In this document: positions 38,500-57,499 of the stretch, one piece after another
Layout: every line of letters begins with the position of its first letter
How positions within the stretch are numbered: the stretch's first letter is position 1
Source of the DNA: a virus
Virus record (IMG/VR): IMGVR_UViG_3300034101_002201
Coordinates: 32,348-96,347 of that record
DNA: 64,000 nucleotides
Direction: 5' to 3' (one strand)
Notes under the pieces: model-generated
Seen by the model: only the letters and a program-made list of their open reading frames with translations
What the model was told of the DNA's origin: nothing
Database searches by the model: none
Translations under genes and position numbers: made by a program

Positions 38500-41400
38500 T
38501 ATTTTCCTCTGATACGTAATGGTAATGATTCAGAAATAATCGTTGTCCCGCTAGTCACAAGCATTAATCCAGATTCAGATATGCTTCTTGGGTATCCGCT
38601 TGCAAACATGGATAATCCAGACGGCATTGCGCCAGAAGCGAAGCCTAATATTGCACTATTATACATTCCTAATGTATTATACACATTTGCCGACACATCT
38701 ACTCTGGTATATAGGGGTAATGAACTACTTGGCAAAGCGTTGGTTCCAAAAGAATACAATAGAAGACCTGTTTTCTTAGGGGTGCCAGACTTGTATTCAC
38801 CAATTACTGCCTCTATATATGGTCTATGTGTTATAAAGCTTTGCGTAGAAGGATCTTGACCAGAAACCTCTAAAAATATATATCCATCTTTTGTTGCGTA
38901 AACATCATTAGATGTAATAACAGGTACATTGGGATCACCCGCATTATAGAATTTAATTCTAGCTTCTTTATTTTCACTTACTTTATCACCAAAGACTCTA
39001 CCCTCTATCCAAGCATTTTCATTTCTGGTAGATGGCGGATTTTGTCTTAACATTATATCTTTGTCATAAACAATGCCAGATGTATTCCAATATTCATTAC
39101 CAACAAATATAGTATAATCAGCATCACTTCTGTAAGGTCTAGTAAGATATACATTTGAGCCATATTGTTCATTTTCAAGTCTACTTGGCGATGTGTCTTT
39201 TTCAACGAATTTCCAATCTCTAGCTCTCCTATTTGCCCAATCAGAAAATCCATACTCATATGTATAAACTGCCCCAGCTTTTGGTATATATGAATATTGT
39301 TGATTACCATAGTTTTGTCTATTTCCAGAAATACCAAGATCTATTACCTGTCTTGTAGTAATGTCAAAGGATTCATCAAAGTACTTTCTACCAAACTCTC
39401 CTCTTGTAATAATTTGTTCATTTCCATATGAATGACCGGGAGCGCCAATAAGCATTATGTCATTATTTAAATACAATGACTCTCCAAATCTATCAGATAC
39501 AATTGACACTCCGCTATTTTGTCCCATCAATGAATCTGGTTTTAATTTTTTAACGCACTGCCAAGAAATATTTACATCATCAACACCAGATCCATTCCCA
39601 GTTTTTTCAAAGACATATACAGCACCACCGCCACCATTCTTTCCTAACGATAATTGACTTGTTGTACTCCAAGGATTTATATTTTCTGATTTAAATGCCG
39701 AGAATGGAGAACCAATAATAACTTTATTTTCTTGTATGGAAACAGAATAACCAAATAAATCTCCGGGATATAGATCTGGAATTTTATCTAAATCCATATA
39801 ATCATATCCTTTATCTTTCAATAGTTCTGGTAATCCACCATCAATTGTGGCATCAACATAAAGATTACCACCTATTACTCCACTAAATCGTGGATACATA
39901 CATCCAGTTTGTAAAATACTTGCGAAGAAACCACTGATAAATTCATTTTTTGTTTCTTCTATTTCTTTTTGATCTGTCAAATCTGCCCAAGGTATATCTG
40001 GTCTATCTGTGACGTATTCAGAATTATAAGTACTTTCTTTATTATTTATGTGAGAGTAGCTTGGACTTCCAAATGACGAATTACCACGGAAGAAAGATAC
40101 TAAACTTTGCATACTATTATCATTAATAAAGTATTTAGCTGGACTTCCTCTTTCTGGAGAAATTAATTTAGTTTGAACATTATATTGTCTACCTAATATA
40201 TCTGTTGGTGCAAAATAAGTTTCTGGATACAAACTTCGTATAAAGCGTCCAGCGTCCTGTCTAAACACGCCTTCCGAATCTACCAAGAATTGACCTTGAA
40301 TTAAATTAGGATCAGATAATAATGTAATTCTAGATCTATTATATCCAGCCTCAAATGATGACCAGATTTCTAATTCTTGTGCGGCGACTACTGGCCCATC
40401 ATCTATTAAATTAAGACTAAGACCTTCTAGTTCACACAGTTCTGTGGAACTGCAATATTTAGCACATTCTGTACTAATAGGTCGAATAACTTCTATCTCT
40501 GATGTACTGCTAGGAATACGATCAGATATCTTCTGTTGCTCATATCCAACTACAACATCATACTCAGAAAATCCTACAACATTTCTGGTAGATATCATAG
40601 CTCCAGATATTCCAACAAGTCTAGTTGTTCTTGGTCTAGGTTCAGATACTAAATTAAGGCTATTGGTATATCTAGTATTGCATCCAATGTAGATGTTGAT
40701 TTCACTAACATTTTCTGCCACTTGCACTTGTAGAGTTTCTTCTGTATCTGCCGGTAGTACGAAGGCAAATGCTGGCGTAAGTGTTTCTCCACTAATATAA
40801 TCTCCATTATCATTTATATAAGATAATGAAGATTGCTCTGGAAAGCTTGTATCTGGACAGGGGTGACGGGGAGTTCTAAATACATTTTCTATAACAACAT
40901 ATAGTGGCACTCTTTCTGTTGGAGTTTCTTGCAAGGTTTTAAAATATAATTCATATCCAGAGCAAGCAACGACGGGAAAAGATACCTTACAAAATCCTGT
41001 ACGCATTTCCCAAAAATCATTTACTGCTATTTTTGGTACAAGATCATTTACAGGAGAATATGAATAAGCTAATGGGATAGAACTTGGTCCTAATTTTATC
41101 GGTGTAAAGTCTATTCTTCCATTCATTATAGGATCTTGAGACTCTCCAAATGAAACAAATGGTCTAAATTTACTAATGTAACTATCAGAATTAAGACCTA
41201 GAGAAAAATCTTGTACAGAAGCATACTTGTCTAAATAGTTCAAATATATTGGTTTCATTTGAACATTAAGTGCGGTCAATAATTTTTCTATATTTTTAAT
41301 ACTTGATATGTTTTGATCATATGTAATAACTAATTTTTTATTCAAACTAGTTGTCCTACTATTTCCCTTTAACCACAATTTAATAGCTTGTAATTCATCT

Positions 41401-44400
41401 GCATATTCTGGACTAGTAATATCATTTAGAGGATTTGCTATCCAAGCAACATCTATGCTATCGTGTAAATCTTTAGTCGGGAATCCCTGTATAACATCGT
41501 TATTTCCTCCCAATACTCCATACAAAATAGATTTTGGATAAGCATCTATGAAACTAGTCCTGTTAGGCCATTGATTTTCACCGCCAATTTGAGCAACTGT
41601 AGAATAAACTCTCTGTTTAGTCTTAGTGTCAATATGAGAAACTAAGTTAACATAGAAGTTCACATTTTGATCTAAATAGCTATCATATATAAATTGCTTT
41701 GATTCACTATTAATTCCTAATAAAACGATTGTGGAAGTATCGTTTTCATAATATGGTTCTTCTACGCAATAGTAGCCCCTTGGAGAGACTTCTTCTTCTT
41801 CTGAATATGGATCTATTTTTACTCTAGATACGGCTTTTGCTTGTAAGACATAACCTTTACCATCAAAGTCTTGGGGTTTATAAAACACGGCTTCTGGATC
41901 TAAATTATAGGCAAAGTTATATTGTAAAGATGAGTAGTCACTATTTCCACTATCCCATATAAAATCTAATTCTGGCTTTGCTCTTCCACCAAATTCACCT
42001 CTTTCATTACTATCAGTTCTCTTTTCTATTATTGGTATACTAATAGTCTTTTCTGGAATTTCTGGAATAGTTATAGTTTGCATAGTTTTTTCTGCTGCAA
42101 CTAATAATGGAATTGGTTCTTGATTTTTTGTTGGCTTTGGTGGTGGTGGTGTATCATAGCCACAGTCTGGCACATAAGATCCAAAAATTAAAGGCCAATT
42201 ATATGAATAGATGACCGTTACAAATCCCTTTGGTGTTGGTTTGCAACATAAATCTTTCCATTCTGCCCGAATATCACCATAATGCTGAAGCGGCATTTCA
42301 CATCTGCTTTGAATTTGTATTTTCTCGGGTGGATCACTACAATCTGTGACCTTAGCACATCTCATTTGCTCAAAGAAATTAGGATAATAAATCTTAATAT
42401 CTGCTACACCGCTACCTATTAAGTTGGTTCTAGCTACATATGTATCAGTACATCCAAAGGGAACAAAAGATGGAACTATATTATTGAATGATGAATATCC
42501 ATTTGGTAATGATTCATATCTATTTCTAGCTTGGACTAACCTCATGCGAGAATTTAGTCTTTCTAGAAGAGTATTAAGAATTTTATTAGATTTAGAGTAC
42601 TGACCATCTGCTTCCCATATTGGATCATTACCAACAAGTACTAGATTTCTATCACCAAGTGCTAGCCAATTAGATATCTTATCAAAAACTTCATTACTTA
42701 AAGCGTTTGCTGAAGGTGTAACAATAAATATTAAACCTACACCTTGAGGAATTTCTGGATCATCAAAATCAGTCTTAACAAAATGTTTGTCTGCAAAGAC
42801 ATCTTTTACGTAATCAAAGTGTCCCGAATCAGCAGTCTTATTAGACATACTAATCATTTCATGTAAATTGCCAAATTTTCCATACTCTATTACGCCACTA
42901 TGTGGATAATATTTTCTTGATTCAAAAATTTTAACAGATCCAGCATTAACAGTCGCGGGCCAAGTGGGCTTAATACTGTCATTTCTATATTGTGGTCTAA
43001 ATTTCTTTTGTCTACCTTTTATGAATTTTTCGCACATACAGGTATAATAAATATCAGCATCGTTTGATAGATTCATGCTGTCCGTTGGAGATCCAACTAT
43101 CAACTTAGTTCCATCTTCATTTAAGTCTAGACTATACCCAAGCCTTGGAGTTGGTGCTGCCAAAGAATTGATAAAGGTCCAAGACCCTATTGGCGCATTA
43201 TCTTGATATGTATATTTGTATACTTGTTCGTATTCTTTAATGTCATAGTCTAGTCTAACTCTAAATTTATCCTCTGGACTTAAACTAAGATATAATTTTT
43301 CAGCATCTTCAATTCTTCCGGGAGACTGTAAATATTGTTGTAGTTCTGTTGAATATTTTGGCTGTTTAGACTGTACCCAATAAGGTATATTTAGATATAA
43401 GTATATTTTTGAGTCTGGCTTATATTCATATACAGTAACAGCATCATTAATATAAGGAGATCCAACAGCTATAACATCAGTATCGTCACTTATGGTTACA
43501 GCGTGACCAAACCTATCTGGATGAGAATAAGTTACATTTGGGGATCTTATTTCTTGAATCAAATTCCAAGATCCACTTTCTTGTTCAAAAATGTAAACAC
43601 GACCACCACTTTCTGGAGGTATAGTAAATGAGGGGTTGGCACTAGAATTAAATGATCCAACATTATTGGAAATAAATCTCTTACCATTTACTTCATTTAT
43701 GAAGTTGAAATCTAAAATTTTATTTAAAGCACCCTTAGACAATTCGATCCAATCTTCATCTTGACCAAATTCTGATGTAAATACAATGGCTTCCCCGCTA
43801 GATGGCATATCTGTATCAAGAGTCTTTACGCCACTATCGTGGCTATATTTTTTATAGTAGTCTACGAATCTACTGAGTGCTGGATCTAATGCTCCAGATA
43901 GCGATGCGCTATTATCTATGCAAATAGATAGTAATGGTGGAATATTGTTGTGTACTTTATTTTCATCATAAGGAAATGCTGTTAAGAATGAGGATTGAAT
44001 TCCACTAAATATTTGATTTATTTTTTCTTCTGACGGTACTTTGCCTCTATTTCTACTAATAGTAGATAGACTAATAAAATCTGGCTTATCTGGAAATTCT
44101 GATACACTGAGATTTGGATCATCAGCTATGGGCTGAATAATCATTAGCTTAACATCAAATTTGACAGATGGTGTGCTAAAATATTTGTATACTAAATCTT
44201 TATTTGTTATTTCTGCAACTACTTCTTCATATCCTTTATAACTATTAGGATATCTACCGGGTAATCTATACGAAAATTCATCTGTGAATAACATTACGCC
44301 AATATTCACTGTGTCAGGTTCTGTAAATGATAATGATCGCGTCCACTTGGCACTCGGTCCACCAACAACGATGATATTTCTTGAGTCATGACCAAGTGAC

Positions 44401-47400
44401 TTTCTTCCACTATCTATTGCTAAGTCTAAAGAATGTCCAAATTGTCTTCCCTCTTGACCAACATTCCAATATGTTTTTAAAATGTTAAATCCGGCAGGCA
44501 AGCTACCATCAAAGTCATTTGATTCAACTATTACAGAATAATCTCTTAACATTTCATTTGGAAGTGTCAATATTCCACTTAATTGCCAAGGAGATTTATG
44601 CTTGTCTGTGGGCCAAGAATAACCAGTTGGCCTATCTTCTCTACGATAAATAAATACAGAGCCTGCTTCTTGTAGAGTCTTTGTTCCTCCGATTTCATTT
44701 GAATCTGTTATAACTAAATCTCTCTTGGGCGCACCAACTATTAAAATGTTATCTTTAGAAGCTATGGCTTTGCCAAACTCATCTCCAGATGCAATGTAAT
44801 TAGTGGGTGGAATAATCTTTATGCCACTATTGTTGAAGAATGTGTCAGTATTAGCTATTGAATTATATTCTATTTCTGTAAATTCACTAGGAACTTCTAC
44901 AAAGTCTTTCGATCCATATCTACCTACCACAGTAACAACGTAAGGATAATTAGGAATTAAACCAGAATATTTTCTAATACCATAAAAATGTCCACTATAC
45001 ATTAGGTCAGTATCAAATGTAGTTACCGTTTGACCAATATTGTTTGTCTTTGTACTTTTAAAAGCTCCGCTCGGCAAAGATAAGTTCGTGTAAGTATACT
45101 GAGGTCTAAATATACCACCGTCTACACAAACCTCTGGTTCATACCAATCGATGCCGTGAATAGTAACAAAATCTTCTTCGCATCTAGCATTATTGCCATC
45201 TTCACATATCCCGCGACAAATTAAAGAAACACCTCGTATATCATCATCAGCATCTATTGTGGCATAAGAATTATCAAACGATGTTATTCCATCTCCAACA
45301 TTATTTTTATCCCATCTTATTGATGCCATGACGGGATCAGCGGATTCATAAGTCAGATAATTTATAGTATATAGGCTACAAGTTTGTGTTAATAAATTTT
45401 CTTGGATAGCAGCAGTGACCAAATTCATCGAAGCGTTACCAGATTGGTATACGTATGGAGAATTTGTGAAAAGTGGCATTGAACCACTAATATATCTATT
45501 ATCTACTAATTGTAAACCTCTGATATAGAGCGGTATCTGCAATTCTGGAGTAATATCAGTAAAAGATGTCAAAGATAAAGATTCAAATAGTATATCTGTT
45601 TCGCCATTTGCGTACAATGGCATTGATATCTCTCTCATCGGCGCGCCACTAACATAAAAAGTCAATGGCCTAGGAGCAGAATCAAACGATCCAAATAATT
45701 GTGGACCGCTGAATACGTCTATAGTAGCAAAAGCCGAAGTAAACAAATTAACAGAATCAGAAGACCAAGTAGATCCAGATGTATAAAAATCAACATTTGC
45801 GTCATGTCTAGGCCACTTTGATCCACTAGTATATAATGTTACGCCAGAAAATGGTACAAAATTTATACCACTATTAAATAAAGTAATTGTATCAAATGAA
45901 TATTGCTTACTCACAGAATACATATTCATTGTTGTATTCTTACCAGATCCCACTACTAGTGCTTGGCATTTAATATTGGCATTATGTATTTTTACTTTGC
46001 TCTTAAATGGTTGTCCACTTGGATATACAATATCATACTGTAAAAACATAGAATTAATATCTGTATTAAGATATCTATCATTAAATTCTCTAGCAATTGC
46101 TTCTGATTCAAACGATGACCAACCTTCTGAATAATCAAAAATGCTATTTTGATTAAAGACAGTTTCAATAGTTCTTATACAGCCGGATGGTTCAAGATAA
46201 TGAGTTTGTCTTGTAACGAGTCCAAAGTCTTGATTTGGTTTAAATGGATGGTTCTGAGAGGGTGTATACAAACTTACTATTAATTTAGGACCAAGTTTTT
46301 CATCATTCCAAATAACGTTTCCGCTGGATTCATATTCTAGTGTGGTTTGTACTGATATGCCACCATCTCTAAATCCATAACCTCTAGGAAGATTTTTGAC
46401 TATCCTTTGTGGAACTCTATAAAATCTATTTGCATCATCGCTGTCCAAGTCAGCTATATTAAATCTTAAAAAGTCATTCTCTATTTGAGTGTGGTAACAT
46501 ACTCCAGAAAGATTAACATCATCTGGTAATGACTTATTAGTAAATTGTGAATAACCAGATCCATGATGATTAAGTTCATGTGTTATATAATCAGAACCAA
46601 CCCTTACAGTCCAAACATCAAATGCTGGAGAAAAGCTACAAGTTCTAAAAGCACCTAAACGCCAATCATCTATATTATTATCTACAAATGACCATAATTT
46701 ATATCCATCATTATTTTCATCTGCATCTGTCCAAAATTTTTGTCTTATAGTTTCAAAAAATTTGGAAATACTAAAATACTTGTAAACACTATCTCTATTA
46801 GCAGAGGGAACATATTTTTCTGGGCCGGGATAGTATATTTGAGCCGGTATATTGTTAGTAATATTAGTTTGATTGCCATATAAAGAATTAGCAATAGGAT
46901 GATTTTTTGTTGAAGTAGTAGAAATACCAAACTCATGAACAAACATTTTCATTCCAGATCCAATGTTGGAATGACCGATTAATAACTTGTTTCCACTTGG
47001 ATTAAACCCAGTGGAGGTATTAGTAATAGCAGCTCCCCTTGCGTGATTAAAAATTCCAGTTTTTATTTCATTATCTGTATATAGACTAATTCTGTTTGCC
47101 AAAGATGGAGAAGGAGATCCAAATTCTCTGAATGTGACTATTGCCGATAGTGGGTACTGGTATTCATAATATGGTAAACTATCCTTAGCCTTTGATATTG
47201 TTCCATTATTTATTAGATATGCACATAGATAACCGTTTTCATATCCAAGATAAAAACCATTTGTTTTTTGTGAATTAATCTGTGAAACTAAAATACCAGA
47301 GTTAAAGAAAAAGTCATTCGAATGATAGTCGGGTGTAAATCTAATATAAAAAGCAAAACCATTATTTGTGTTTACATTTCCAAAGTCTAAATGAGCATTT

Positions 47401-50366
47401 GCACCAGACACTCTTACGGCGTTGTCATAAGCATCGCAAATCTTACCATATAGAGGATGACCTATAAAGTTGTTGCTACCACTAGATAGCAATGTCCAAT
47501 CCAATGATGAATAATTACCAGTATATCCTACTAACTGATTAGTGAAAATATTATTATTTTTGAATCTAAGTCCAAGATTTTGATATTTTTCACAATTGCC
47601 CACATATTTTCCACTCAAAGAACCAAGTCCACTACCAAGTGGTAATGAAAATATATTAGAACCACTATCATAATTGAAATTAAAGTAACCAGATAAAAAT
47701 GGTCGTTCAATTTCTGGATTATAAAATGAGTAATCAAATTCTGCCGCACTAAACGGACCATTTGTAATTGAGCCAGTTACCCCTCTCCATCTACGAGAAT
47801 AGTTAGTTTTTAATGTTGGATAATTGAGATAACCGTGGGGAATATTTTCTATCTTAGATAGTTGAGTTGAATATCCTAAACCGTGATTATGCTTTCTATC
47901 TGATGCCGAATTGTAATTAGAAGGCATCAATGTGAATTCTCTTTTTGTCATCTCTCTTGATTGATCACCACCGATAGTAATCATGGACAAAGCATTAGAT
48001 GGAGTATAATTTACAATTAATTTAATACTACAAATTTTTGCTCCGGTTGGCAAGGGTGATATATCAACATATAAGTTTTCAAACATGGATGCCGATGTAT
48101 AGGATATTGTGTCATATCCAAAATAGTTTTGCTCATTGTAAATTTTCAATGGAAAAGTATATTCTTGAAACTGAACACCAGTTACCCTTGGACACATCAG
48201 CCAAGCAACGCCATAAAATACATCAGCAATATTTGATTTTTCAATAGAAGTCAAATTATTTGAATTAGATACCGTAACAGTATCTATCAGCTTAAATATA
48301 TCAGACTCTAGTGTTGGATATGTATATTTTAATTCTTCTTGAGCAAAAATTGTTCTTGCTTTATCAAGCACATTATTTTTACTTTGTATTAATGCATTTT
48401 CTGATATTTCTTTAGCAAATTCTTTGCTATATTTTGAAAACTGAACTTGATGTTTTGAATTAGTAATTACTTTATATTCTGATAAATTCTTAGTTGTTGT
48501 TTTGATCTGGTTTAGGATTGTACTATTTGGTTTATAAACATCAATATCTTGTATTGTATAATGATCGCCTAGACTTGTGATATCTTTTTCATAATACTGA
48601 GATTTGTTTGATATAGCGTCAAATGACATAGATAAATCATCGATATCATAAAAGCCAGATATTTTTGGTATATCTTGGATTTTATACGATATTGTATCAT
48701 CATTTTGTAAAAATCCGCCAATTTTTTTAGTTACATTCAAAAGCTTATCATCACTATAACCAACAACATCAATAACATAATCTGGAATACTTGAGTTAAT
48801 TTTACTAGCTATTACTTTTAGCTCAACGCTTGTTACATTAAAATATTCATCATTATTTTTTAACAACTCATATGCAGCATTGTTAAATGCGGGATTATTT
48901 CCTCCAAAGTCAAAAGCCCCACCAACAAAACCCTTGGCATCTATAAATGGTAAAGTATTAAACTTAACAACTAATTTCCCGCTTGGATAAGAATCTGCAA
49001 GACCAGAGAGCATTATAAATTGATCTCTAGAGTCTGTACGGATTTTATTGACTAGTATATTAGCATGTTCTAGAGTAGTATTTTCGTATCTGTTTTCTTC
49101 TTCATCAAAAGCAATCCATTTACTATTTTTAGTTGGATATATCCCATTATCATATTGATATAGCATCATTTCTGATGGACCAAGAACTCGACTTATTGTT
49201 CTTGGTGTGTAACTAGATAATTGATATATCGGTAAAAATGATTCAATTGCTAAGTTTTCTGTACCGCTGTTTCCAACTTCTACGGCAGAAATTTTTAAAT
49301 AATTAAGTGGATCAATTAGTGGATTAAACTGCGGATAAGTAGACAAACAAGTATCTTCGTATCCCTCGTCAAATTTTTCAGAAAATGGTGATTGTTCGCA
49401 TTTTGCGCTAATAGAAAATGATAGTGTATATCCGCTTGGCTGATTTATTAATGGATAACTATTTTGCCACTGATAAGATGAAACTAGATTATTTGTTTTA
49501 GTATCAGAAATATAGGTAGTATATCCGGTATCTGGTTTTATGTTTATATCATTATATGATATTATTAAATTGCCAGATGGGTCTTGAAATTTTACATCAT
49601 AAATTTTGTAATATTGTGGCTTTCTCTCCATATAATTGCTATATGGTGCAAATGCTCTTATAGCAAAATAACTTTGCTTCGCTATCAAGTTTGGCTTGCT
49701 GACAGAAAATTTATATACTATGTCTCCGCTAACTAGTAGATTATTTGGAAATACATAAGAAACTTCATCATCTGTAATGAGATATCCGTTATTACGATTC
49801 GAAGTATAGTCACCTATAAAAACACCTTCATCTACAGCACCGTCGTGTCTAACTGGATATTCAGTTGATAAATAATCATAATTTTCGAGAAGAATTGAAT
49901 TACCATTTTCTGTTATCAAATTTTCAAAATTAGTAATTTTTACATCAACTGGAGAATTATCATATTTTGTAGAAAACTGAGCAAAACCGCTGGGAAACAA
50001 TTTTTGAGTAGCAATAAATCCTGCGGAGCCAAAAAATTTATCAGCATATTTTATACTGTATTTACTTGAAGACCCATTTCTTGATCGCAAAGTTCCATCT
50101 AATATGCTAATAAATTTTAAATCACTATTACGTCCACCTAATCTTGATATTGGAGATAAATTTGAATTTTCTCTTAGTCTTACACCACCAAAAAAACTAA
50201 GGCGTGTTGCACCATTAGCAATAAATTGTGTGTTAGCTCTTATTTTAAAAACTGAACCGTTTTTGTGATTTATTGGTCCAAGTACAGATGAATTTTTAGC
50301 AACTAATTTACTAGTAGCTTTAATTCTTTCGTAATCGGTAGGTACTAAACAAATCTCACAAGTCAT
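38499..50366 (-). CDS. giant virion protein with a LamG-like domain and FG-GAP beta-propeller repeats
   Basis: 3955 aa; FG...GAP/GSP repeats (DEFGK..IVGAP, QFGH..VGGP, RFGH..VGSP, RLGY..VGSP, LFGY..IGSP, RFGE..IGAP, QYGS); LamG-like GFAFYIRF...GFYLGY. Confidence 0.7.
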   Translation of the reverse strand: MTCEICLVPTDYERIKATSKLVAKNSSVLGPINHKNGSVFKIRANTQFIANGATRLSFFGGVRLRENSNLSPISRLGGRNSDLKFISILDGTLRSRNGSSSKYSIKYADKFFGSAGFIATQKLFPSGFAQFSTKYDNSPVDVKITNFENLITENGNSILLENYDYLSTEYPVRHDGAVDEGVFIGDYTSNRNNGYLITDDEVSYVFPNNLLVSGDIVYKFSVSKPNLIAKQSYFAIRAFAPYSNYMERKPQYYKIYDVKFQDPSGNLIISYNDINIKPDTGYTTYISDTKTNNLVSSYQWQNSYPLINQPSGYTLSFSISAKCEQSPFSEKFDEGYEDTCLSTYPQFNPLIDPLNYLKISAVEVGNSGTENLAIESFLPIYQLSSYTPRTISRVLGPSEMMLYQYDNGIYPTKNSKWIAFDEEENRYENTTLEHANILVNKIRTDSRDQFIMLSGLADSYPSGKLVVKFNTLPFIDAKGFVGGAFDFGGNNPAFNNAAYELLKNNDEYFNVTSVELKVIASKINSSIPDYVIDVVGYSDDKLLNVTKKIGGFLQNDDTISYKIQDIPKISGFYDIDDLSMSFDAISNKSQYYEKDITSLGDHYTIQDIDVYKPNSTILNQIKTTTKNLSEYKVITNSKHQVQFSKYSKEFAKEISENALIQSKNNVLDKARTIFAQEELKYTYPTLESDIFKLIDTVTVSNSNNLTSIEKSNIADVFYGVAWLMCPRVTGVQFQEYTFPLKIYNEQNYFGYDTISYTSASMFENLYVDISPLPTGAKICSIKLIVNYTPSNALSMITIGGDQSREMTKREFTLMPSNYNSASDRKHNHGLGYSTQLSKIENIPHGYLNYPTLKTNYSRRWRGVTGSITNGPFSAAEFDYSFYNPEIERPFLSGYFNFNYDSGSNIFSLPLGSGLGSLSGKYVGNCEKYQNLGLRFKNNNIFTNQLVGYTGNYSSLDWTLLSSGSNNFIGHPLYGKICDAYDNAVRVSGANAHLDFGNVNTNNGFAFYIRFTPDYHSNDFFFNSGILVSQINSQKTNGFYLGYENGYLCAYLINNGTISKAKDSLPYYEYQYPLSAIVTFREFGSPSPSLANRISLYTDNEIKTGIFNHARGAAITNTSTGFNPSGNKLLIGHSNIGSGMKMFVHEFGISTTSTKNHPIANSLYGNQTNITNNIPAQIYYPGPEKYVPSANRDSVYKYFSISKFFETIRQKFWTDADENNDGYKLWSFVDNNIDDWRLGAFRTCSFSPAFDVWTVRVGSDYITHELNHHGSGYSQFTNKSLPDDVNLSGVCYHTQIENDFLRFNIADLDSDDANRFYRVPQRIVKNLPRGYGFRDGGISVQTTLEYESSGNVIWNDEKLGPKLIVSLYTPSQNHPFKPNQDFGLVTRQTHYLEPSGCIRTIETVFNQNSIFDYSEGWSSFESEAIAREFNDRYLNTDINSMFLQYDIVYPSGQPFKSKVKIHNANIKCQALVVGSGKNTTMNMYSVSKQYSFDTITLFNSGINFVPFSGVTLYTSGSKWPRHDANVDFYTSGSTWSSDSVNLFTSAFATIDVFSGPQLFGSFDSAPRPLTFYVSGAPMREISMPLYANGETDILFESLSLTSFTDITPELQIPLYIRGLQLVDNRYISGSMPLFTNSPYVYQSGNASMNLVTAAIQENLLTQTCSLYTINYLTYESADPVMASIRWDKNNVGDGITSFDNSYATIDADDDIRGVSLICRGICEDGNNARCEEDFVTIHGIDWYEPEVCVDGGIFRPQYTYTNLSLPSGAFKSTKTNNIGQTVTTFDTDLMYSGHFYGIRKYSGLIPNYPYVVTVVGRYGSKDFVEVPSEFTEIEYNSIANTDTFFNNSGIKIIPPTNYIASGDEFGKAIASKDNILIVGAPKRDLVITDSNEIGGTKTLQEAGSVFIYRREDRPTGYSWPTDKHKSPWQLSGILTLPNEMLRDYSVIVESNDFDGSLPAGFNILKTYWNVGQEGRQFGHSLDLAIDSGRKSLGHDSRNIIVVGGPSAKWTRSLSFTEPDTVNIGVMLFTDEFSYRLPGRYPNSYKGYEEVVAEITNKDLVYKYFSTPSVKFDVKLMIIQPIADDPNLSVSEFPDKPDFISLSTISRNRGKVPSEEKINQIFSGIQSSFLTAFPYDENKVHNNIPPLLSICIDNSASLSGALDPALSRFVDYYKKYSHDSGVKTLDTDMPSSGEAIVFTSEFGQDEDWIELSKGALNKILDFNFINEVNGKRFISNNVGSFNSSANPSFTIPPESGGRVYIFEQESGSWNLIQEIRSPNVTYSHPDRFGHAVTISDDTDVIAVGSPYINDAVTVYEYKPDSKIYLYLNIPYWVQSKQPKYSTELQQYLQSPGRIEDAEKLYLSLSPEDKFRVRLDYDIKEYEQVYKYTYQDNAPIGSWTFINSLAAPTPRLGYSLDLNEDGTKLIVGSPTDSMNLSNDADIYYTCMCEKFIKGRQKKFRPQYRNDSIKPTWPATVNAGSVKIFESRKYYPHSGVIEYGKFGNLHEMISMSNKTADSGHFDYVKDVFADKHFVKTDFDDPEIPQGVGLIFIVTPSANALSNEVFDKISNWLALGDRNLVLVGNDPIWEADGQYSKSNKILNTLLERLNSRMRLVQARNRYESLPNGYSSFNNIVPSFVPFGCTDTYVARTNLIGSGVADIKIYYPNFFEQMRCAKVTDCSDPPEKIQIQSRCEMPLQHYGDIRAEWKDLCCKPTPKGFVTVIYSYNWPLIFGSYVPDCGYDTPPPPKPTKNQEPIPLLVAAEKTMQTITIPEIPEKTISIPIIEKRTDSNERGEFGGRAKPELDFIWDSGNSDYSSLQYNFAYNLDPEAVFYKPQDFDGKGYVLQAKAVSRVKIDPYSEEEEVSPRGYYCVEEPYYENDTSTIVLLGINSESKQFIYDSYLDQNVNFYVNLVSHIDTKTKQRVYSTVAQIGGENQWPNRTSFIDAYPKSILYGVLGGNNDVIQGFPTKDLHDSIDVAWIANPLNDITSPEYADELQAIKLWLKGNSRTTSLNKKLVITYDQNISSIKNIEKLLTALNVQMKPIYLNYLDKYASVQDFSLGLNSDSYISKFRPFVSFGESQDPIMNGRIDFTPIKLGPSSIPLAYSYSPVNDLVPKIAVNDFWEMRTGFCKVSFPVVACSGYELYFKTLQETPTERVPLYVVIENVFRTPRHPCPDTSFPEQSSLSYINDNGDYISGETLTPAFAFVLPADTEETLQVQVAENVSEINIYIGCNTRYTNSLNLVSEPRPRTTRLVGISGAMISTRNVVGFSEYDVVVGYEQQKISDRIPSSTSEIEVIRPISTECAKYCSSTELCELEGLSLNLIDDGPVVAAQELEIWSSFEAGYNRSRITLLSDPNLIQGQFLVDSEGVFRQDAGRFIRSLYPETYFAPTDILGRQYNVQTKLISPERGSPAKYFINDNSMQSLVSFFRGNSSFGSPSYSHINNKESTYNSEYVTDRPDIPWADLTDQKEIEETKNEFISGFFASILQTGCMYPRFSGVIGGNLYVDATIDGGLPELLKDKGYDYMDLDKIPDLYPGDLFGYSVSIQENKVIIGSPFSAFKSENINPWSTTSQLSLGKNGGGGAVYVFEKTGNGSGVDDVNISWQCVKKLKPDSLMGQNSGVSIVSDRFGESLYLNNDIMLIGAPGHSYGNEQIITRGEFGRKYFDESFDITTRQVIDLGISGNRQNYGNQQYSYIPKAGAVYTYEYGFSDWANRRARDWKFVEKDTSPSRLENEQYGSNVYLTRPYRSDADYTIFVGNEYWNTSGIVYDKDIMLRQNPPSTRNENAWIEGRVFGDKVSENKEARIKFYNAGDPNVPVITSNDVYATKDGYIFLEVSGQDPSTQSFITHRPYIEAVIGEYKSGTPKKTGLLLYSFGTNALPSSSLPLYTRVDVSANVYNTLGMYNSAILGFASGAMPSGLSMFASGYPRSISESGLMLVTSGTTIISESLPLRIRGK

Positions 50367-50374
50367 TTTATTTC

Positions 50375-53300
50375 CTAAGCCATTCTAGGCACAATTCCCG
50401 GATTACTCTTTAATTCACCATCTGTAGTTGCTCTAAGTGTATTAATTTTGTTCATTATTTCAGTTAAGATTTCATTCTTTACAGATTGTGATACACTAGC
50501 TAAAGCCTGCATACCAGTTAGATTTATATTTACATTGGTAGCATCTAATTTGATTTTAATTTCTGTACTTTTTAGGGCTTCAATATTTTTAGTTAAATCT
50601 CGGTTAAAAGTATTAAGAGCAGCGGTAAATATAGACATGGAATCAGAACTAGAACTTGGGCTTGGGCTTGGGCTTTCTGCATTCTTGCTACCAAATCTCC
50701 TATATCTAACCATTCCTCCGTCTGCCATCATCGCCGTTCCATTATTAGATACACCACTCGATCCATTGTTCATCGCTTGTAAAACACGTAAATTATTGCC
50801 TCTCTGAACAGCATTTCTATTAACTACAAATTCACCCGGAGTTAACATAGCTGGTATAGTATCTGTTCCCCTAGGTACAAATATACCATTACTAGCATAG
50901 AGTAATCCACCCTTTGCCATACCAACCGCATTTCCAGCTTCTCTGCCACGATTAACAACGTCTGCCAATTCTAATTTAGCAGCATTTACTATTACAGTCT
51001 CTGTCTGTACTTGCATTTCTGCCATTTCTGTTCCTAGTTGACCAGTTTCTCCAAGCATACCGCCTAATTGACGCAATCTGGATTTACTAGCTTCTTCTTC
51101 TGGTGTTGTACCAGATAATACTTGTGCTGCTCTTGCATCTCTTACACCCATGGAAGACAATGCAGCACCGGCAGCGGCTTCTGATAGACCTCCGGGACCG
51201 GCAAGTTGTTGACCATATAAAGTTTGTACGCCAGCCTCTTGTTGTCTTTGAATGTCCATAGACGCAGCACCAAGAGCCTGCGATCCATACAATTTCATTA
51301 GTCTTTCATCGCCACTAGCGATAGCAGCAGTAGCACCAACGGCAGATTGCTTTTTAAAGAACTCTTCTACATCACCCTTAACAAGAGATTCTAAAGAATC
51401 TTTTTCAAGTTTATTCTTTTCTTGAGTAATCTTGAGTTGATCTTCTTCTAGCTTGATTAATCCACGTATTGTTTCTATTTGAGTTCTATATGCTTTTTGT
51501 AAATCTTTTTGTGTTTCATCAGCTTCGACACCGGCAACACCCTGCATACCATTACGCTGGCTTTTTCTGGACTCTATATTACCAAACGCCCCACCAATTT
51601 CAGCATTCCTTCTTCTCAATTCTCCTATGTCGCCACTTTTCATAGCAGTTAAACCTAAACGAGATCCTTCAACATTAGATTTAGCTAATAAATTTCCTTT
51701 TCGTTCTTGGTTTGTTACTGCGCGACCACCATATTTTGCTTCAACTTCTCGCCCCTCCATTGTCAAGTCTAGAGCTTCTTGTTGAGCCTGCACTAAATTG
51801 CGTTCAGCTTCAATCCTTTGTTTAGTAAGTGATATCAGTTGTTGATTTATTTTGGCGGTTTGTTCAGCAACCTTTTTCGCTTCTTCAAGTGTCTTTTGAC
51901 CAGCTTCGTCAAGATATTTTTGAAACACACTAAGATCGCCACCTCTTAGTTTTGTCATATCATCATTTGATAGCTTGACATTACCAAGTACGTCTTGCAT
52001 TCGTTTTCTTACATCTTCACCTATACCAGCATTTTTTAATTGCTCGTCTAAATTCTTAGCAAACTTATCAGTGAATCCTTCTGCATTTAATCCACGGAAA
52101 TCAGCTTTACTAAAGTCTTTTTTAACTCCTTCGAATATTTCATTATAATTTGCAGATACGGCAGCAAAAGCTGCGGCATTTTCTTTAAACATTTGTACAG
52201 ATTTATCAGTAGCACCTAATTGTTCTAAATTTGCTGCAACATCATTGATAGCAGATTGAACATTTTTAGGATTCATGGCCTGACCAGCTTCGCTGAATGC
52301 CGCTTCAAGAGTTGCAACACCTTGAGTAATTGGAGTAGATCCAACTTCTAAACTATCTGCAAAAACAGATAAAGATGCAGCGGCAGCATTGGCAGTAGCT
52401 ACTGGGCCTCGCAAACCTAGATTTAACGCTTCAAATGCTTTTTTAGCTTTTGCAACTTCTTTGGCTATATTATCGAAGCCCTGTTTTAATTGAGTACTTC
52501 CTTGATTTACGAGAGAAAAATATAAACCGGGATTATTTTTCTTGATGTCTTCCATGACATCTTCAAATGATCCACCGGCTACAGCAAATTGTCTAGATAA
52601 AGCATTTATTGCTGGGGTACTTTGTTGTATTAATGCTTCTTGAGCTTTTTTATCGCCAGCAGACAATTCTTTATTTTCTTTGTCTATTCTTGTATTCCTC
52701 TGTTTGCCAGATTCTAACCCCATATAACCAGCTAGACCTAGTGTGCCAACTCTAGCTGTGCCACGCAGAAAACCCCCAACCATGCCACTCTTATTTTTTT
52801 CATTATCTGCAATAGCCTTTTTACTAGTTTCGCTATTTTTCATTACTTCTTGACCAGCCATGGCATTAGATGCTATAGCCTGAGAAGCCGTTATAGTTCC
52901 ATTCTCTAAGTCTTTCATTGCTTTAGTAACAGCTTCAGATCCATCGTTTAATGCTTTTTGTGTTTTTACTCCTTGAGCTTGCGCCGCAGCTAATGAACGA
53001 ATACTATCAGCTGTATTTCCACCAAATAAAGTTCCAATACCTATAGCAGCTTCTTTAATGTATGGTCCTATAATTGGAAGTTCGCTTCCTAATTTAAGAG
53101 CAGATGCTGTTGCTACTCCGACTGCTAATCCAAATGGACCAAAAAGTGAACTTATTCCAATTATAGTAGACCCTAAACCATTTATGGCTTCGGAGCCAGC
53201 TGCTTCTATGGCATTTGATTTAGCTTTTTCTACATTGCCATCTTGAATAGCCTTGTTAGCTTGACCTTGATAATCAACAAATGAGTCAATAACAGAAGTT

Positions 53301-56300
53301 ATTGCGGTAAATGCTAATCCTAAACCTATTGCTGGGCCACTCAATTTATTTAAATTTGTCAAACCCTTACCAGCTAAACCGCCAGCTTGTGCTGACACAG
53401 AAGCACCACTACCAATTACAGATTTGGCTGGGTTAGCTATTGTGGCAGATGCGCCCTTATAAAATTGAGAACCAGCCTTCGTAATCGTACCTCCAGCGGT
53501 AGATAATCCACTCTTTACCGCACCAACTCCGGGTATCTTAGATAGTGCATCCCCGCCAACACTCAAAGTTCTTCCTAATGCGCCACTGGCCTTTGTTGCA
53601 ATACCTTTGGAAGAACCAAAAATATTAGAAAATGTTGCATTTGGACTGTTCAATCCTGCACTAAATCCTCTGCCAATATTAGATTTATTTATAGCAGTGG
53701 CGGCTGTGGCACCTCTAGTAATTAAACTTTTTCCAGTATCTATAGTTGCTTGAGTTGCCCGTCCAGCTAATCCTATTCCTCTACTTAAACCGGCACCACC
53801 CGGAGCATCTACTCTTCCAGCCATTCCTCTTTTAAAGATGGTAGAAAAACTTTTTAGACCGGGAATTCCTCCTTTAATAGTAGAAAATAAATCTGTGAGC
53901 GATTTGGCACCACTCAAAAAATCTAAAGCATTTTGAGCTACCATTTTAGCTGTAGCTAAAGATAATTGTATATTCATTTGCTGTAGAGCTATAATAGATA
54001 TACCAATAGTAGAAGCTAAATTGCTAAAAGTGTTTAATAAAGTAGCACCGACTCTTTCAAATGCTGAACTATTTTCATCAATAACCGGAGTCAAAGAAGT
54101 GAGTGCAGCTTGTACAGCCGTTAATCCACCTAAAGAAAAATATAATGATTGTCCAAAATTCTGTACAAAGCCAGATGATTTGTTCTGAGATTCAGCATTG
54201 CTATCTACCGCTTTTGTTTGCGCGATTTGTGCTTTTGTTAAAGCTTCTGCTTGTTGAGTTAAAGAGTCTAATCCAACGAATGCAACTATGCCGGGATTGC
54301 TTTTGCTACTTGCCGGTTGCGCCCCAGCCATTGGTGTACCACTAGCAAATTTTTGAACAATTCCTCCGCTGGCATATCTTCCAACTTTATTCATACGGTT
54401 TAGATTACCGTAACCAATATTCTGGGCGGATGAGCGATTAATAACAAACTCGCCGGGGGTTAATAGGGCGGGAACGGTGTCAGTTCCAACTCCACCGCCC
54501 TTTGCAAACTGTTGCACATCCATCCAAAGATTTTTACGCCCCATCATATCAACAAGCTTGGAACTATTGATCTTAAATCGTGAACCGGGCTGTAGTGTAA
54601 ATTCACTTTCTGATTCTGGGGGTTTTTGATAAAATGTTTCCATTTTACCAGTTCTGGGATTCAAGGCTTGTTTAGAACCACCAACTTTTCTACCACTTAG
54701 TTGTTTCTCAACATCAACTCCCATAGCGTTCTTTTTAGTCATGATGGTCATCATTGCTGCCCATTTGTCTTCTGAGCGATCAGCATTATCCAAGAACATT
54801 TTGGCTTTATTCATTTCCTTACTAGTAGAAAGGAAACCAGATAGTTTAAATGTTCTTCCAATTATTTTTTTGGCTTCTTGATCATAATACTTTTCTCTAT
54901 CAAATAATCTAGTACCTTCTGGAATTTTAGGATTTTTATTAAGTCCAGTTTGGTTTGCCATCGAATCAAATGCATTGCGGGATATGGAACTATATAATAG
55001 TTTTGGTGCAGCAGATCTTAAAGATCTCATATCACGAATTTTATCAGCAGTTTCTTTTCTGTCGGATGAATATAAAGAGTTTCCTTCAAAGAAACTTTGT
55101 AGAGTGTTTTTAGGATCTCTAGCAACACCCCCGCCTTTGGCAAACTTTTGAATAAGTCCACCAAAGAACTTCTTTCTTGGTCCTTTTGGATTATCAAATT
55201 CTGATCTACCCTTACTAGTTCCTTCCATAGAAAGAACTCTTTTCTTCAGTGCTTGAAATGTTCCACTAGTATTAACTTGTTCAGCAAGAGTATTCATTGT
55301 TTTTCTAGATGCTATATCATTCAATATGCTACTATCTAAAGTCTTTTTAGCATCGGTTGGCTTGTCTGCTAGTTCTGAAAATGCTTTAAATTGCCCCAAA
55401 TGACTACCAATACCCATGGGAAAATCGAAAGCATCTCTATCTTGTTTGCCTCTATTTGCATCAAATGGCGCACCAAGACTACTTACAGCCGCTTCAAAAA
55501 TTTTGCCAGTAGCATCTTCTAATCCTATTGATTTAATTACATTTTGGTTAAAAGCACCAATAGCGGTTGGAAGGCCAACGGAAGAAGCTAATTGAGAAGC
55601 TACGTTTGGTATTATGCCTGTATAAGCATTTGTAAGAGAAGTTTTTATACCTTGTTCAACAGAAGAGTCTGAATTTTTTGTAGAAGGGAAAGACACCCCC
55701 TTAGTTGTAAATGTTTGTCGGTTTTTACCCCCAAAAGCTATTCTACTAACTAATTTTTCTAATCTATTTCCGAAAGTTAATCCATCTGGAGCTTCTTTGC
55801 GGTCCATTAAATTTTGTAGTTTACCGCTTTTATCAGTAAGTTTTAAGTTTCCAGATATGCCACCAGCAAGTTGATTATTGTTAGATAATGTAGCAAGAAT
55901 ATCTTTTACAGTAACAGTTCCTTTACCAGTAGCCTGCGAATCCATAGGATTTAAAGCTATTGCTCCAACAGTTCCGCCCATAGCATACCGATTATTATTC
56001 ATCGCCGCAAGTGTACCAGCACCCATTTTATTAACGCTACTCTTGCGTATAACAAATTCGCCGGGAGCTAACATCGCAGGAACAGTATCACTATTACCGG
56101 TGCCGGGAACTAAACCGCCTCTTGCAAATCCAAGAACTTTTCCGCCCTTATTATATGTTCGTCCAGATGTAGCACCGCTCATTATTCCACCAAAAAATCC
56201 ACCTAAACCTTTGGCAACTTTAAAAGCTGCTAATGCTGCTAGCATTGGAAGTAAAGGCTTAATAGAATCTGCGATCTTAATTAATGCTGAAGCTAAAGAT

Positions 56301-57499
56301 AGAGCAGAATTAGCCATGATTTGAAATGTAGAAGTTTCAGTAACACTGCGGATTAACGCAAGGAACTCTTCTCTAACTTTCATAATCCTAATGGCAAGTG
56401 CGGCTTGTGCTGATGCGGCATCTTGTGTTAAAGAATCACCAGCCTTCATGGCAACATTAAGAGCGGACTGAGCGGTAGAGAATTGCTGTAAAAGTGGAAG
56501 AACTTTACCAATCTGTCGGAATCCACCAAGCTCTTCAGCAATACTAATAAATGTAAGATCGCCCTCCCCCAATCCAGACAAAGCTTCACTTAATCGTCTG
56601 ATGGCTTCATATGGGCCAACGAACTTGCCATTAAGATCCACTAATTCCACGCCAAATTGTTTTAAGAATTCAATAGTTTTGGGACGTTGAATACGTGTAA
56701 AAATAGTACGTAAACCAGTACCAATACTTTCAGCACTTTCTCGCGTTGTGGCTCTAACACTAGTAAATAATGCTAATAGTTCATTTAAGTCACCGCCCGA
56801 TGCCTTAAACACACCACCTGTTCTACGAACAACGTCAATTAAGTCGCTGGCTTCTACGGCAAATGCACCGGCAACAGCATTGATAGAACCAAGTTGCTTT
56901 TCTAATGCTCCAACACCCTGACCAAATTGAGCAAGAATAGCAATAGCACCTTCTGCTGTTTCTGTTATACTATCAAAGTTAGGAGCAAGAGCAGCTTTTG
57001 CTAATGTTCTTAAGGCAATAGAAGTATCTTCAGCTGTTAGACCGGCTTGAGCTAATACGGTAGAAACTTCTAATAAATCTGACGAAGCGACACCAAAACC
57101 TGTAGATAAATTAGTTATCTGCTTAGTAAGACCACGAAGCTGGCTTATACTTTTGCCTGTTACTTGGCTTACTTTAATCAATTGGCGTTCAAAATCAATA
57201 GCTGTCTCTACCGCACTCCCAAGAGTACTAGTAAATAAACTAACTGCCCTAGTTGCAATAGAAAAAGCAGCAAACCGCCTAATAGAAAGGGCAAATGCTT
57301 TACCCATTCTTTCGGCGGCTGTTGTTGCTTGATTAGAGGCTTGAGCTACTTGCTGAATTTGCTTTTGAGCTTGTACCGCCCCCTGTACTTGTACATTGAC
57401 GGTAACGCCCTGTAATTGTTGTTGTATTTGTTGTACAACTTGTTTAACATTATTAGGAGCTTGTAGCTGTAATTGTGCGGTCAGTACGAACTTGGACAT
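50375..57499 (-). CDS. tail tape measure protein with internal cargo domains
   Basis: 2374 aa; TP901-like core (DFERQL, LAQAG, RESAESIGTGLRTIFTR, GGFRQ), hydrophobic segments, coiled coils, three DT(V/I)PA(M/L)LxPGEFV modules. Confidence 0.92.
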   Translation of the reverse strand: MSKFVLTAQLQLQAPNNVKQVVQQIQQQLQGVTVNVQVQGAVQAQKQIQQVAQASNQATTAAERMGKAFALSIRRFAAFSIATRAVSLFTSTLGSAVETAIDFERQLIKVSQVTGKSISQLRGLTKQITNLSTGFGVASSDLLEVSTVLAQAGLTAEDTSIALRTLAKAALAPNFDSITETAEGAIAILAQFGQGVGALEKQLGSINAVAGAFAVEASDLIDVVRRTGGVFKASGGDLNELLALFTSVRATTRESAESIGTGLRTIFTRIQRPKTIEFLKQFGVELVDLNGKFVGPYEAIRRLSEALSGLGEGDLTFISIAEELGGFRQIGKVLPLLQQFSTAQSALNVAMKAGDSLTQDAASAQAALAIRIMKVREEFLALIRSVTETSTFQIMANSALSLASALIKIADSIKPLLPMLAALAAFKVAKGLGGFFGGIMSGATSGRTYNKGGKVLGFARGGLVPGTGNSDTVPAMLAPGEFVIRKSSVNKMGAGTLAAMNNNRYAMGGTVGAIALNPMDSQATGKGTVTVKDILATLSNNNQLAGGISGNLKLTDKSGKLQNLMDRKEAPDGLTFGNRLEKLVSRIAFGGKNRQTFTTKGVSFPSTKNSDSSVEQGIKTSLTNAYTGIIPNVASQLASSVGLPTAIGAFNQNVIKSIGLEDATGKIFEAAVSSLGAPFDANRGKQDRDAFDFPMGIGSHLGQFKAFSELADKPTDAKKTLDSSILNDIASRKTMNTLAEQVNTSGTFQALKKRVLSMEGTSKGRSEFDNPKGPRKKFFGGLIQKFAKGGGVARDPKNTLQSFFEGNSLYSSDRKETADKIRDMRSLRSAAPKLLYSSISRNAFDSMANQTGLNKNPKIPEGTRLFDREKYYDQEAKKIIGRTFKLSGFLSTSKEMNKAKMFLDNADRSEDKWAAMMTIMTKKNAMGVDVEKQLSGRKVGGSKQALNPRTGKMETFYQKPPESESEFTLQPGSRFKINSSKLVDMMGRKNLWMDVQQFAKGGGVGTDTVPALLTPGEFVINRSSAQNIGYGNLNRMNKVGRYASGGIVQKFASGTPMAGAQPASSKSNPGIVAFVGLDSLTQQAEALTKAQIAQTKAVDSNAESQNKSSGFVQNFGQSLYFSLGGLTAVQAALTSLTPVIDENSSAFERVGATLLNTFSNLASTIGISIIALQQMNIQLSLATAKMVAQNALDFLSGAKSLTDLFSTIKGGIPGLKSFSTIFKRGMAGRVDAPGGAGLSRGIGLAGRATQATIDTGKSLITRGATAATAINKSNIGRGFSAGLNSPNATFSNIFGSSKGIATKASGALGRTLSVGGDALSKIPGVGAVKSGLSTAGGTITKAGSQFYKGASATIANPAKSVIGSGASVSAQAGGLAGKGLTNLNKLSGPAIGLGLAFTAITSVIDSFVDYQGQANKAIQDGNVEKAKSNAIEAAGSEAINGLGSTIIGISSLFGPFGLAVGVATASALKLGSELPIIGPYIKEAAIGIGTLFGGNTADSIRSLAAAQAQGVKTQKALNDGSEAVTKAMKDLENGTITASQAIASNAMAGQEVMKNSETSKKAIADNEKNKSGMVGGFLRGTARVGTLGLAGYMGLESGKQRNTRIDKENKELSAGDKKAQEALIQQSTPAINALSRQFAVAGGSFEDVMEDIKKNNPGLYFSLVNQGSTQLKQGFDNIAKEVAKAKKAFEALNLGLRGPVATANAAAASLSVFADSLEVGSTPITQGVATLEAAFSEAGQAMNPKNVQSAINDVAANLEQLGATDKSVQMFKENAAAFAAVSANYNEIFEGVKKDFSKADFRGLNAEGFTDKFAKNLDEQLKNAGIGEDVRKRMQDVLGNVKLSNDDMTKLRGGDLSVFQKYLDEAGQKTLEEAKKVAEQTAKINQQLISLTKQRIEAERNLVQAQQEALDLTMEGREVEAKYGGRAVTNQERKGNLLAKSNVEGSRLGLTAMKSGDIGELRRRNAEIGGAFGNIESRKSQRNGMQGVAGVEADETQKDLQKAYRTQIETIRGLIKLEEDQLKITQEKNKLEKDSLESLVKGDVEEFFKKQSAVGATAAIASGDERLMKLYGSQALGAASMDIQRQQEAGVQTLYGQQLAGPGGLSEAAAGAALSSMGVRDARAAQVLSGTTPEEEASKSRLRQLGGMLGETGQLGTEMAEMQVQTETVIVNAAKLELADVVNRGREAGNAVGMAKGGLLYASNGIFVPRGTDTIPAMLTPGEFVVNRNAVQRGNNLRVLQAMNNGSSGVSNNGTAMMADGGMVRYRRFGSKNAESPSPSPSSSSDSMSIFTAALNTFNRDLTKNIEALKSTEIKIKLDATNVNINLTGMQALASVSQSVKNEILTEIMNKINTLRATTDGELKSNPGIVPRMA
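54443..56155 (-). repeat. two DTVPAxLxPGEFV modules and AxGG motifs flanking the TMP cargo region
   Basis: Copies at 56051-56128 and 54443-54508; third copy at 50825-50920. Confidence 0.85.

Follow-up and report, generated by a model that had tools for sequence, protein, structure and literature searches.

Alt of bacteriophage T4 is a packaged phage ADP-ribosyltransferase (ART) that acts right after infection (PMC8120803). In MuF-ART fusions, a VIP2-like ART sits on a virion protein and is predicted to be carried into the host along with the DNA (PMC7302621). Phage polyvalent proteins that bear an ART are a similar case (PMC7824862). The element described here is an ART-like domain within the tape measure protein (TMP) of an uncultured phage. 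It is encoded in a stretch of 64,000 nucleotides (the window), positions 32,348 to 96,347 of IMG/VR record IMGVR_UViG_3300034101_002201; the record is 96 kb long, is estimated to be ~60% complete and has a GC content of 34%. TMPs with embedded peptidoglycan hydrolase or peptidase motifs occur in mycobacteriophage TM4 and in T5 (pb2). Alt, ModA and ModB were already known as phage ARTs, as were head-protein ART fusions and cell-wall enzymes in TMPs; what is new is an ART cassette that lacks the canonical arginine, bears insertions and is carried by a tape measure protein. No description of a TMP-ART fusion was found in the literature searched for tape measure protein together with ADP-ribosyltransferase.

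The domain resembles T4 Alt in being a phage-borne, virion-carried ART that presumably acts at once on entry. Alt is, however, a free protein packaged in the head and has the canonical arginine in an LYR motif, whereas here the vehicle is the TMP, the copies are probably three, and the arginine is absent. With the MuF-ART and polyvalent proteins it shares the fusion of an ART to a virion protein. In the MuF-ART case the carrier is a head MuF or portal protein with the ART at its terminus, whereas in the present case the carrier is a tail TMP and the ART is internal, between linker repeats. TMPs of the TM4 and T5 type likewise hold optional catalytic modules that are exposed when the TMP is ejected. 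Their enzymes act on the cell wall, outside the cytoplasm, whereas an NAD+-dependent enzyme works in the cytoplasm only.

The TMP gene (P0002) spans 50375-57499 on the minus strand, as do all features of the protein given below, and is a single uninterrupted open reading frame of 2374 codons. Its product scored 91.1 bits (E 1.1e-25) against Pfam PF10145 (PhageMin_Tail), above the cut-off of 33.2, and matched the PHROG tape measure families with E 4e-19; by its sequence it is a TP901-type tape measure protein. A Pfam scan of all 2374 residues listed PF10145, TMP_N and PF03496 and nothing else, and found no MuF (head morphogenesis) domain.

Predicted fold and family of the domain

The domain proper (P0001) comprises TMP residues 791-997 (54509-55129) and is supported by an AlphaFold2 (AF2) model and by VIA and Foldseek structure searches. 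The original prediction had placed an ART-like domain at exactly this position, between two FAKGG motifs. The open reading frame runs through it uninterrupted, residues 791-997 do lie between the two motifs, and the structure prediction it had proposed as a check returned an ART fold. The model, computed with a 32-row alignment, had a predicted local distance difference test score (pLDDT) of 89.7 and a predicted template modelling score (pTM) of 0.81; a run on the single sequence was poor (pLDDT 47.9) and was discarded.

The highest VIA scores were obtained with CPILE-a (Z 13.5), the Listeria ART-ARH toxin (8za7_B, Z 12.6), VIP2 and C3bot2 (both Z 12.1) and C3stau2 (Z 12.0). The top 22 rows were ARTs of the R-S-E clade throughout (Z 13.5-6.3, 130-157 residues aligned), and 18 clade members scored Z 13.5-9.1 across model residues 3-207. 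Foldseek, of which the VIA search is independent, returned C3larvin, Plx2A, CDTa, Certhrax, VIP2, iota Ia, C2-I, Vis and C3bot first from the PDB, with E ~1e-7 and probability 1.00. The best matches in the BFVD viral structure library were ModB, ModA, and the MuF-ART and portal-ART proteins. In the ESM Atlas feature search the nearest entries were small viral PF03496 clusters (score 0.97), and ModB was found there too. Residues 791-997 are thus predicted, with high confidence, to form an ART-fold domain of the cholera-toxin-like (R-S-E or ARTC) clade with C3/VIP2 topology, comprising a split beta-sheet core and the N-terminal helical subdomain typical of that type.

The C3 and binary-toxin ARTs (C3bot, VIP2, iota Ia/CPILE-a, CDTa, C2-I, Certhrax, Vis; PF03496) share fold and topology with the model (Z 13.5-11.4, 145-157 residues aligned). 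Their motif blocks also follow one another as in the TMP domain, and STS and (Q/E)xE of the two can be superimposed in the alignment. The TMP domain differs from them in having Ser for the beta-1 Arg, Pro for the ARTT aromatic, an insertion of ~33 residues before ExE and ~16 variable residues before beta-2. Moreover, C3-type ARTs are secreted, whereas this one lies in the interior of a phage tail protein, and identity is just 9-18%.

At the level of sequence the relationship is distant. The original prediction had proposed a profile search against ADPrib_exo_Tox, and the outcome was divided. The window domain alone scored 20.5 bits (E 3.4e-4) against PF03496, below the gathering cut-off of 23.4, whereas its relative P0029 passed with 32.1 bits (E 9.4e-8, profile positions 20-193). 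Of six domain-only relatives, three matched PF03496 at E ≤ 0.01. With phmmer, searching all of 1.84 billion protein representatives exhaustively gave 18 matches, namely 16 giant TMPs, one TMP fragment and P0041 (E 1e-8), the sole match outside TMPs. P0041 is a protein of 1636 residues with five near-identical repeats of 298 residues, in each of which a Q/E/K-rich repeat region precedes a canonical ART (PF01129/PF03496, LYRG...STS...EAE). A word-indexed search retrieved 33 domain-bearing TMPs (45-93% identity), seven of which carried a precomputed PF03496 match.

Further copies were sought in phage, viral, metagenomic and prokaryotic sequences. The domain had no tblastn match in 50,697 deposited phage records, and the viral contigs gave none with the single domain protein as query; with the family alignment, four loci were found there. 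The metagenome contigs gave one locus. The genome contigs of 185,579 prokaryotic species held no copy of the domain, and these genomes therefore provide no evidence for a prophage or cellular copy. NCBIfam had nothing for the domain, and PHROGs no family. Profile-profile comparison of the family with three C3 sequences gave E 0.024; the search for C3 homologues had yielded these three proteins only, so that this support is thin. The comparison with T4 Alt (E 0.046, probability 1%) was not significant. The PF03496 scores, the AF2 model, the matches to solved ARTs and the ESM Atlas clusters argue that the motifs described below are no chance coincidence.

Motif register and the missing arginine

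The motif register was set against C3 of Clostridium phage c-st and Alt of T4. Residues were counted over 41 TMP-borne cassettes with a median pairwise identity of 55%, down to about 29-45%; two of them are truncated before ExE. All four canonical ART blocks, alpha-3, beta-1, STS and ExE, are present and follow each other in the right order; for YRG, STS and ExE this is the order that the original prediction had given for the R-S-E clade. The alpha-3 block is YTKSASEINGKLR in C3, YVGSGYVDINNAL in T4 Alt and DTLExYYxDSSxxNLGL in the TMP family. In the window, the family alignment leaves a remnant of this NAD-binding helix motif, TLQSFFEGN (55079-55105), which hhalign paired with EKEAIVSYTKSASEINGKLR of C3. 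The block is 11-14 residues shorter in the subclade of the window (P0002-P0004) than in the other members (DTLExYYxDSSxxNLGL...).

The beta-1 block reads MLFRGDD in C3, TLYRSQR in T4 Alt, and LLYSSISR in the TMP family and the window (54977-55000), where S837 (S47 of the domain) occupies the position of the canonical Arg. LLYSSI forms strand 44-49 of the AF2 model (pLDDT ~94), and hhalign of the family with C3 paired LYSS with LFRG, STS with STS and ExE with QxE. The original prediction had recognised this block as KLLYSS and cautioned that the expected Arg appeared to be Ser. The motif holds, with a correction to its coordinates: 54986-54997 cover LYSS only, and the full KLLYSS occupies 54986-55003. 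The caution proved well founded and extends to the whole family, since the position is Ser in 39 of the 41 cassettes, Ala in one and Asn in one, and neither R nor K in any. In the R-S-E clade the beta-1 Arg positions NAD+; the roles of R, STS, E and ExE are described in the same source (PMC8120803).

The STS motif, S891-T-S893 (54821-54829), which in this clade belongs to beta-3, lies at the end of strand 100-103 of the model and is followed by a helix. It was invariant in all 41 cassettes, aligned with the STS of C3, Alt and P0041, and reads ISTS in C3, VSTS in Alt, and LSTS in the family and the window. For GFLSTS (54821-54838), as for ExE (54602-54610), the coordinates of the original prediction were exact. 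After STS, family conservation outlined a segment AKxFLDNAxRxxDxW (54761-54805) at the place of the phosphate-nicotinamide loop. Its residues K110, F112, D114, N115, R118 and D121 (domain numbering) are invariant in the 41 cassettes, and R24 and R51 are conserved in 40 and 38 of them, respectively. From its position, R908 (R118 of the domain) is the leading candidate for the role of the beta-1 Arg at the NAD+ diphosphate. The loss of that Arg would then be offset by other conserved basic residues, either R118 in the post-STS loop or R24, R51 or K110.

The catalytic block is GQLEMLLPR in C3, NEMEVILPR in T4 Alt, SESEFTLQP in the window and SEEEVILQPR in relatives. Family conservation marks E964-S-E966 (54602-54610), followed by F-T-L-Q-P-G-S-R-F-K-I, as the ExE motif. 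Both Glu residues (E174 and E176 of the domain) are present in all 39 sequences that contain this part. In the alignments, the counterpart of E964-x-E966 is Q212-x-E214 in C3 and E-M-E in T4 Alt. It is Alt that the TMP ExE block most resembles, with APSNEMEVILPRG in Alt against PPSSEEEVILQPRS in the TMP family. The ARTT motif has been defined as X-X-aromatic-X-X-E/Q-X-E (PMC8120803). In the TMP domain, the aromatic position is taken by the invariant P961, three residues before E964; T4 Alt has Pro at the same position, which indicates that the aromatic residue is not universal among active members. Given the full-length superposition on solved ARTs and the secondary-structure register, STS and ExE presumably converge on one pocket.

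The missing arginine raises the possibility that the ART fold transfers no ADP-ribose and serves the TMP as a binding, plug or spacer module, like the VIP2-like domain 2 of anthrax lethal factor or the N-domains of binary toxins. Domain 2 of lethal factor, a non-catalytic ART fold, is indeed among the structural matches (VIA Z 10.0). The absence of the canonical Arg from 41 of 41 members, the shortened alpha-3 motif in the window subclade and the sub-threshold Pfam score of the window domain all fit such a module. Dead ART folds usually lose residues of STS or ExE, and here STS, ExE, K110, D114, N115, R118 and D121 stay unchanged between sequences that are as little as about 29-45% identical. 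The invariance of STS, ExE and this polar block at such low identity is hard to explain without a ligand or a catalytic site. Moreover, the cassette is optional (see below) and hence dispensable for tail assembly or length. On balance we regard a non-catalytic module as unlikely.

Ahead of the ARTT/ExE turn lies a family-specific insertion of ~33 residues containing INPRTGKMET (54620-54721), modelled as a beta-hairpin (strands 151-156 and 163-168, pLDDT 75-85) and conserved across the family. The distance from STS to ExE is accordingly 75 residues, compared with 40 in C3. The register with LYSS as beta-1 also fits the VIA range, which is 168 residues in VIP2 and 205 in the model. If S47, S101 and E176 correspond to residues that we take to be R349, S386 and E428 of VIP2, the difference equals the net effect of 13 residues lost before beta-1, 17 gained before STS and the 33 inserted before ExE. 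In addition, two helices separate beta-1 from beta-2 in the model, as they do in C3, which fits the accepted register.

A variable 16-residue block, IPEGTRLFDREKYYDQ (54878-54925), resembles a second 'PxxxxLFR' block and is not beta-1. Single-sequence hhalign to C3, Alt and P0041 had suggested IPEGTRLFDR (residues 70-78) as the true beta-1/Arg block. We rejected this pairing because the segment is poorly conserved, is deleted in P0032, P0039, L006 and L007, and is helical in the model. Even under this pairing the Arg position would be occupied by Asp.

The unusual insertion before ExE, together with the lack of the beta-1 Arg, could suit an acceptor other than protein arginine, with the domain acting as an NAD+ glycohydrolase or as an ART on DNA, RNA or a small molecule. 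The clade does include the DNA-modifying Scabin and pierisin, which are weak VIA matches (Z 4.4 and 2.9). The best structural matches, on the other hand, are protein-modifying ARTs, ExE is typical of arginine-modifying enzymes (PMC8120803), and an early drain of NAD+ would presumably hurt the replication of the phage itself. A hydrolase or non-protein acceptor is therefore, in our judgement, distinctly unlikely.

The linker site of the tape measure protein

With both linker copies included, the ART cassette comprises TMP residues 786-1002 (54494-55144). The FAKGG linkers, residues 786-790 (55130-55144) and 998-1002 (54494-54508), bound the ART domain exactly. Immediately C-terminal to the cassette is TMP motif 2, GVGTDTVPALLTPGEFV (54443-54493). 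In P0060 the cassette is cleanly absent and a single linker remains, GGLIQRFATGG|GVGTDTVPALLTPGEFV, where the window TMP has GGLIQKFAKGG|GVARD...ART...QQFAKGG|GVGTDTVPALLTPGEFV. About 28 nt of DNA recur imperfectly as a direct repeat on either side of the cassette, with 24 positions identical. A third state is found in P0050, which has at the same site an unrelated cargo of ~150 residues (819-964) between two copies of KFAVGG.

The cassette survey was based on the N-terminal 450 residues of the TMP, for which more than 2118 homologues were found. Among the 111 further close relatives listed, 76-92% identical in this part, two carry the ART. A simple pattern search could parse 120 TMPs: 13 had nothing at the site, 38 had 120-180 residues of other cargo there, and the ART carriers had a longer stretch. 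In P0050 and ~38 other ART-less TMPs, the cargo at this FAxGG-bounded site is charged or helical, comprises 110-165 residues and is unrelated to ART. The phage lineage itself is abundant in metagenomes, judged by the more than 2118 TMP homologues and by contigs of up to ~167 kb.

The similarity of the ART is uncoupled from that of the surrounding TMP. P0004 shares 92% identity with the window TMP in the ART, but 55% and 26% in the N-terminus and the middle, respectively, whereas P0009 is 91% identical in the preceding module and 65% in the ART. Read from these alignments, the TMPs are mosaic. The ART is an optional cargo cassette of ~212 residues at a FAxGG|GV linker that immediately precedes the second DTVPALLTPGEFV motif, and it is horizontally exchanged between divergent TMPs. 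Being optional, it is not needed for tail assembly or tail length. Domain A, which precedes the ART (residues 516-785; 55145-55954), is exchangeable as well: it is conserved at ~65% in the ART-less P0060 and is only 25-36% identical, barely alignable, in P0003, P0005, P0007 and P0010, despite N-terminal cores 81-90% identical.

Along the TMP, a conserved core is followed by motif 1, the variable module, the ART, motif 2, two hydrophobic segments, a coiled coil, motif 3 and the C-terminus. The three copies of the GVGTDTVPALLTPGEFV-type motif occupy residues 458-483 (56051-56128), 1003-1019 (54443-54493) and 2209-2225 (50825-50875). The motif has 17-26 residues with the pattern (F/Y)AxGGxVxGxGxxDT(V/I)PAxLxPGEFV, and all three copies are kept in close TMP relatives. 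Three stretches of the TMP were matched by phrog_35029, and the repeat motif matched gp16, the tape measure protein of mycobacteriophage Douge (8zdo), weakly in two places (E 0.011). C-terminal to the cassette, a Kyte-Doolittle scan (window 19, mean >1.5) marked two hydrophobic, glycine-rich, membrane-like segments, residues 1386-1408 and 1442-1465 (53105-53344).

The gene directly downstream of the TMP (38499-50366, minus strand) encodes 3955 residues, presumably a giant tail-tip or fibre protein; its sole Pfam match is to FG-GAP repeats (PF14312, E 1.6e-15). The next three genes beyond it (1590, 1155 and 622 residues) had no Pfam match, and almost no Pfam or PHROG matches were obtained for the neighbouring tail and head genes.

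Proposed role at infection

We propose that the domain is a divergent, probably active ART that would be expelled with the TMP at infection and would ADP-ribosylate host proteins, as a functional analogue of T4 Alt; we give this reading a probability of roughly 0.55. The location of an ART inside a virion protein that is expelled at infection makes the analogy with Alt reasonable. In other phages the TMP is a trimer that fills the tail lumen, keeps the tail sealed and leaves it ahead of the DNA (PMC13033339). The ART domain would accordingly ride in the tail lumen as part of the TMP and leave through the tail tip ahead of the DNA. The hydrophobic, C-terminal part of the TMP would exit first and enter the envelope membrane. 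The N-terminal part with the ART would follow just before the DNA and reach the cytoplasm, where the ART would fold and, at the very start of infection, mono-ADP-ribosylate host proteins at the expense of NAD+. The ExE motif, typical of arginine-modifying ARTs (PMC8120803), makes arginine the likeliest acceptor.

Several observations weigh against this proposal. The Pfam score of the window domain stays under the curated cut-off, hhalign with single ARTs was weak (E 0.02-0.1), and HMMER searches of PDB sequences, whether started from the single domain, from its profile or from that of the TMP, retrieved no solved ART, returning weak chance matches only (OmpH/Skp and a TMP motif). To these must be added the loss of the beta-1 Arg from all 41 members, Pro in place of the ARTT aromatic and the shorter alpha-3 block of the window subclade. 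On the side of delivery, we estimate that three folded domains of 23 kDa are too large to lie side by side in a tail lumen of ~4 nm, so that unfolding and refolding must be assumed. Moreover, NAD+ is cytoplasmic, so that the ART-bearing part of the TMP would have to enter the cytoplasm. The dose would also be low, at probably three copies per virion.

No unfolding or refolding need be assumed if the enzyme works late, in the producing cell, on host or phage proteins before tail assembly, with its presence in the virion being incidental. The TMP is made before assembly in a cytoplasm that contains NAD+. Neither an ADP-ribosylhydrolase (PF03747, ARH) nor a macrodomain (PF01661, Macro) was found in the 96-kb record, so that nothing there restrains such an enzyme, although the record is only ~60% complete. 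A late cytoplasmic enzyme could, however, be encoded by a free gene, like the small viral ARTs. The domain is built instead into the one tail protein that passes into the next host on ejection, and the linker site it occupies accepts other cargo as well; this points to delivery. We therefore consider late action very improbable.

Delivery at infection, as proposed above, may also be part of a broader scheme, which we put forward tentatively as one possibility. The TMP of a large phage clade would be an effector-delivery platform, with FAxGG-bounded cassettes swapped by recombination at the linker repeats, like polymorphic-toxin tips. The ART would be an active S-S-E variant that binds NAD+ through R118 or another invariant basic residue, may be freed at the linkers, and would modify a cytoplasmic target, either a host or a defence protein, within seconds after adsorption. 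If true, this would mean that a siphophage TMP delivers its N-terminal third to the cytoplasm.

The whereabouts of the TMP once it has been ejected are an old open question. An NAD+-dependent enzyme in the TMP works only if that part enters the cytoplasm, and the cassette could therefore serve as a built-in reporter of TMP fate. The 41 sequences with STS and ExE and never the Arg are, in turn, a natural test of how essential the R of R-S-E is. Finally, as far as the sequences of more than 100 close TMP relatives indicate, the empty, other-cargo and ART states of one linker site suggest that this abundant, uncultured phage lineage of low GC content exchanges effectors as modules.

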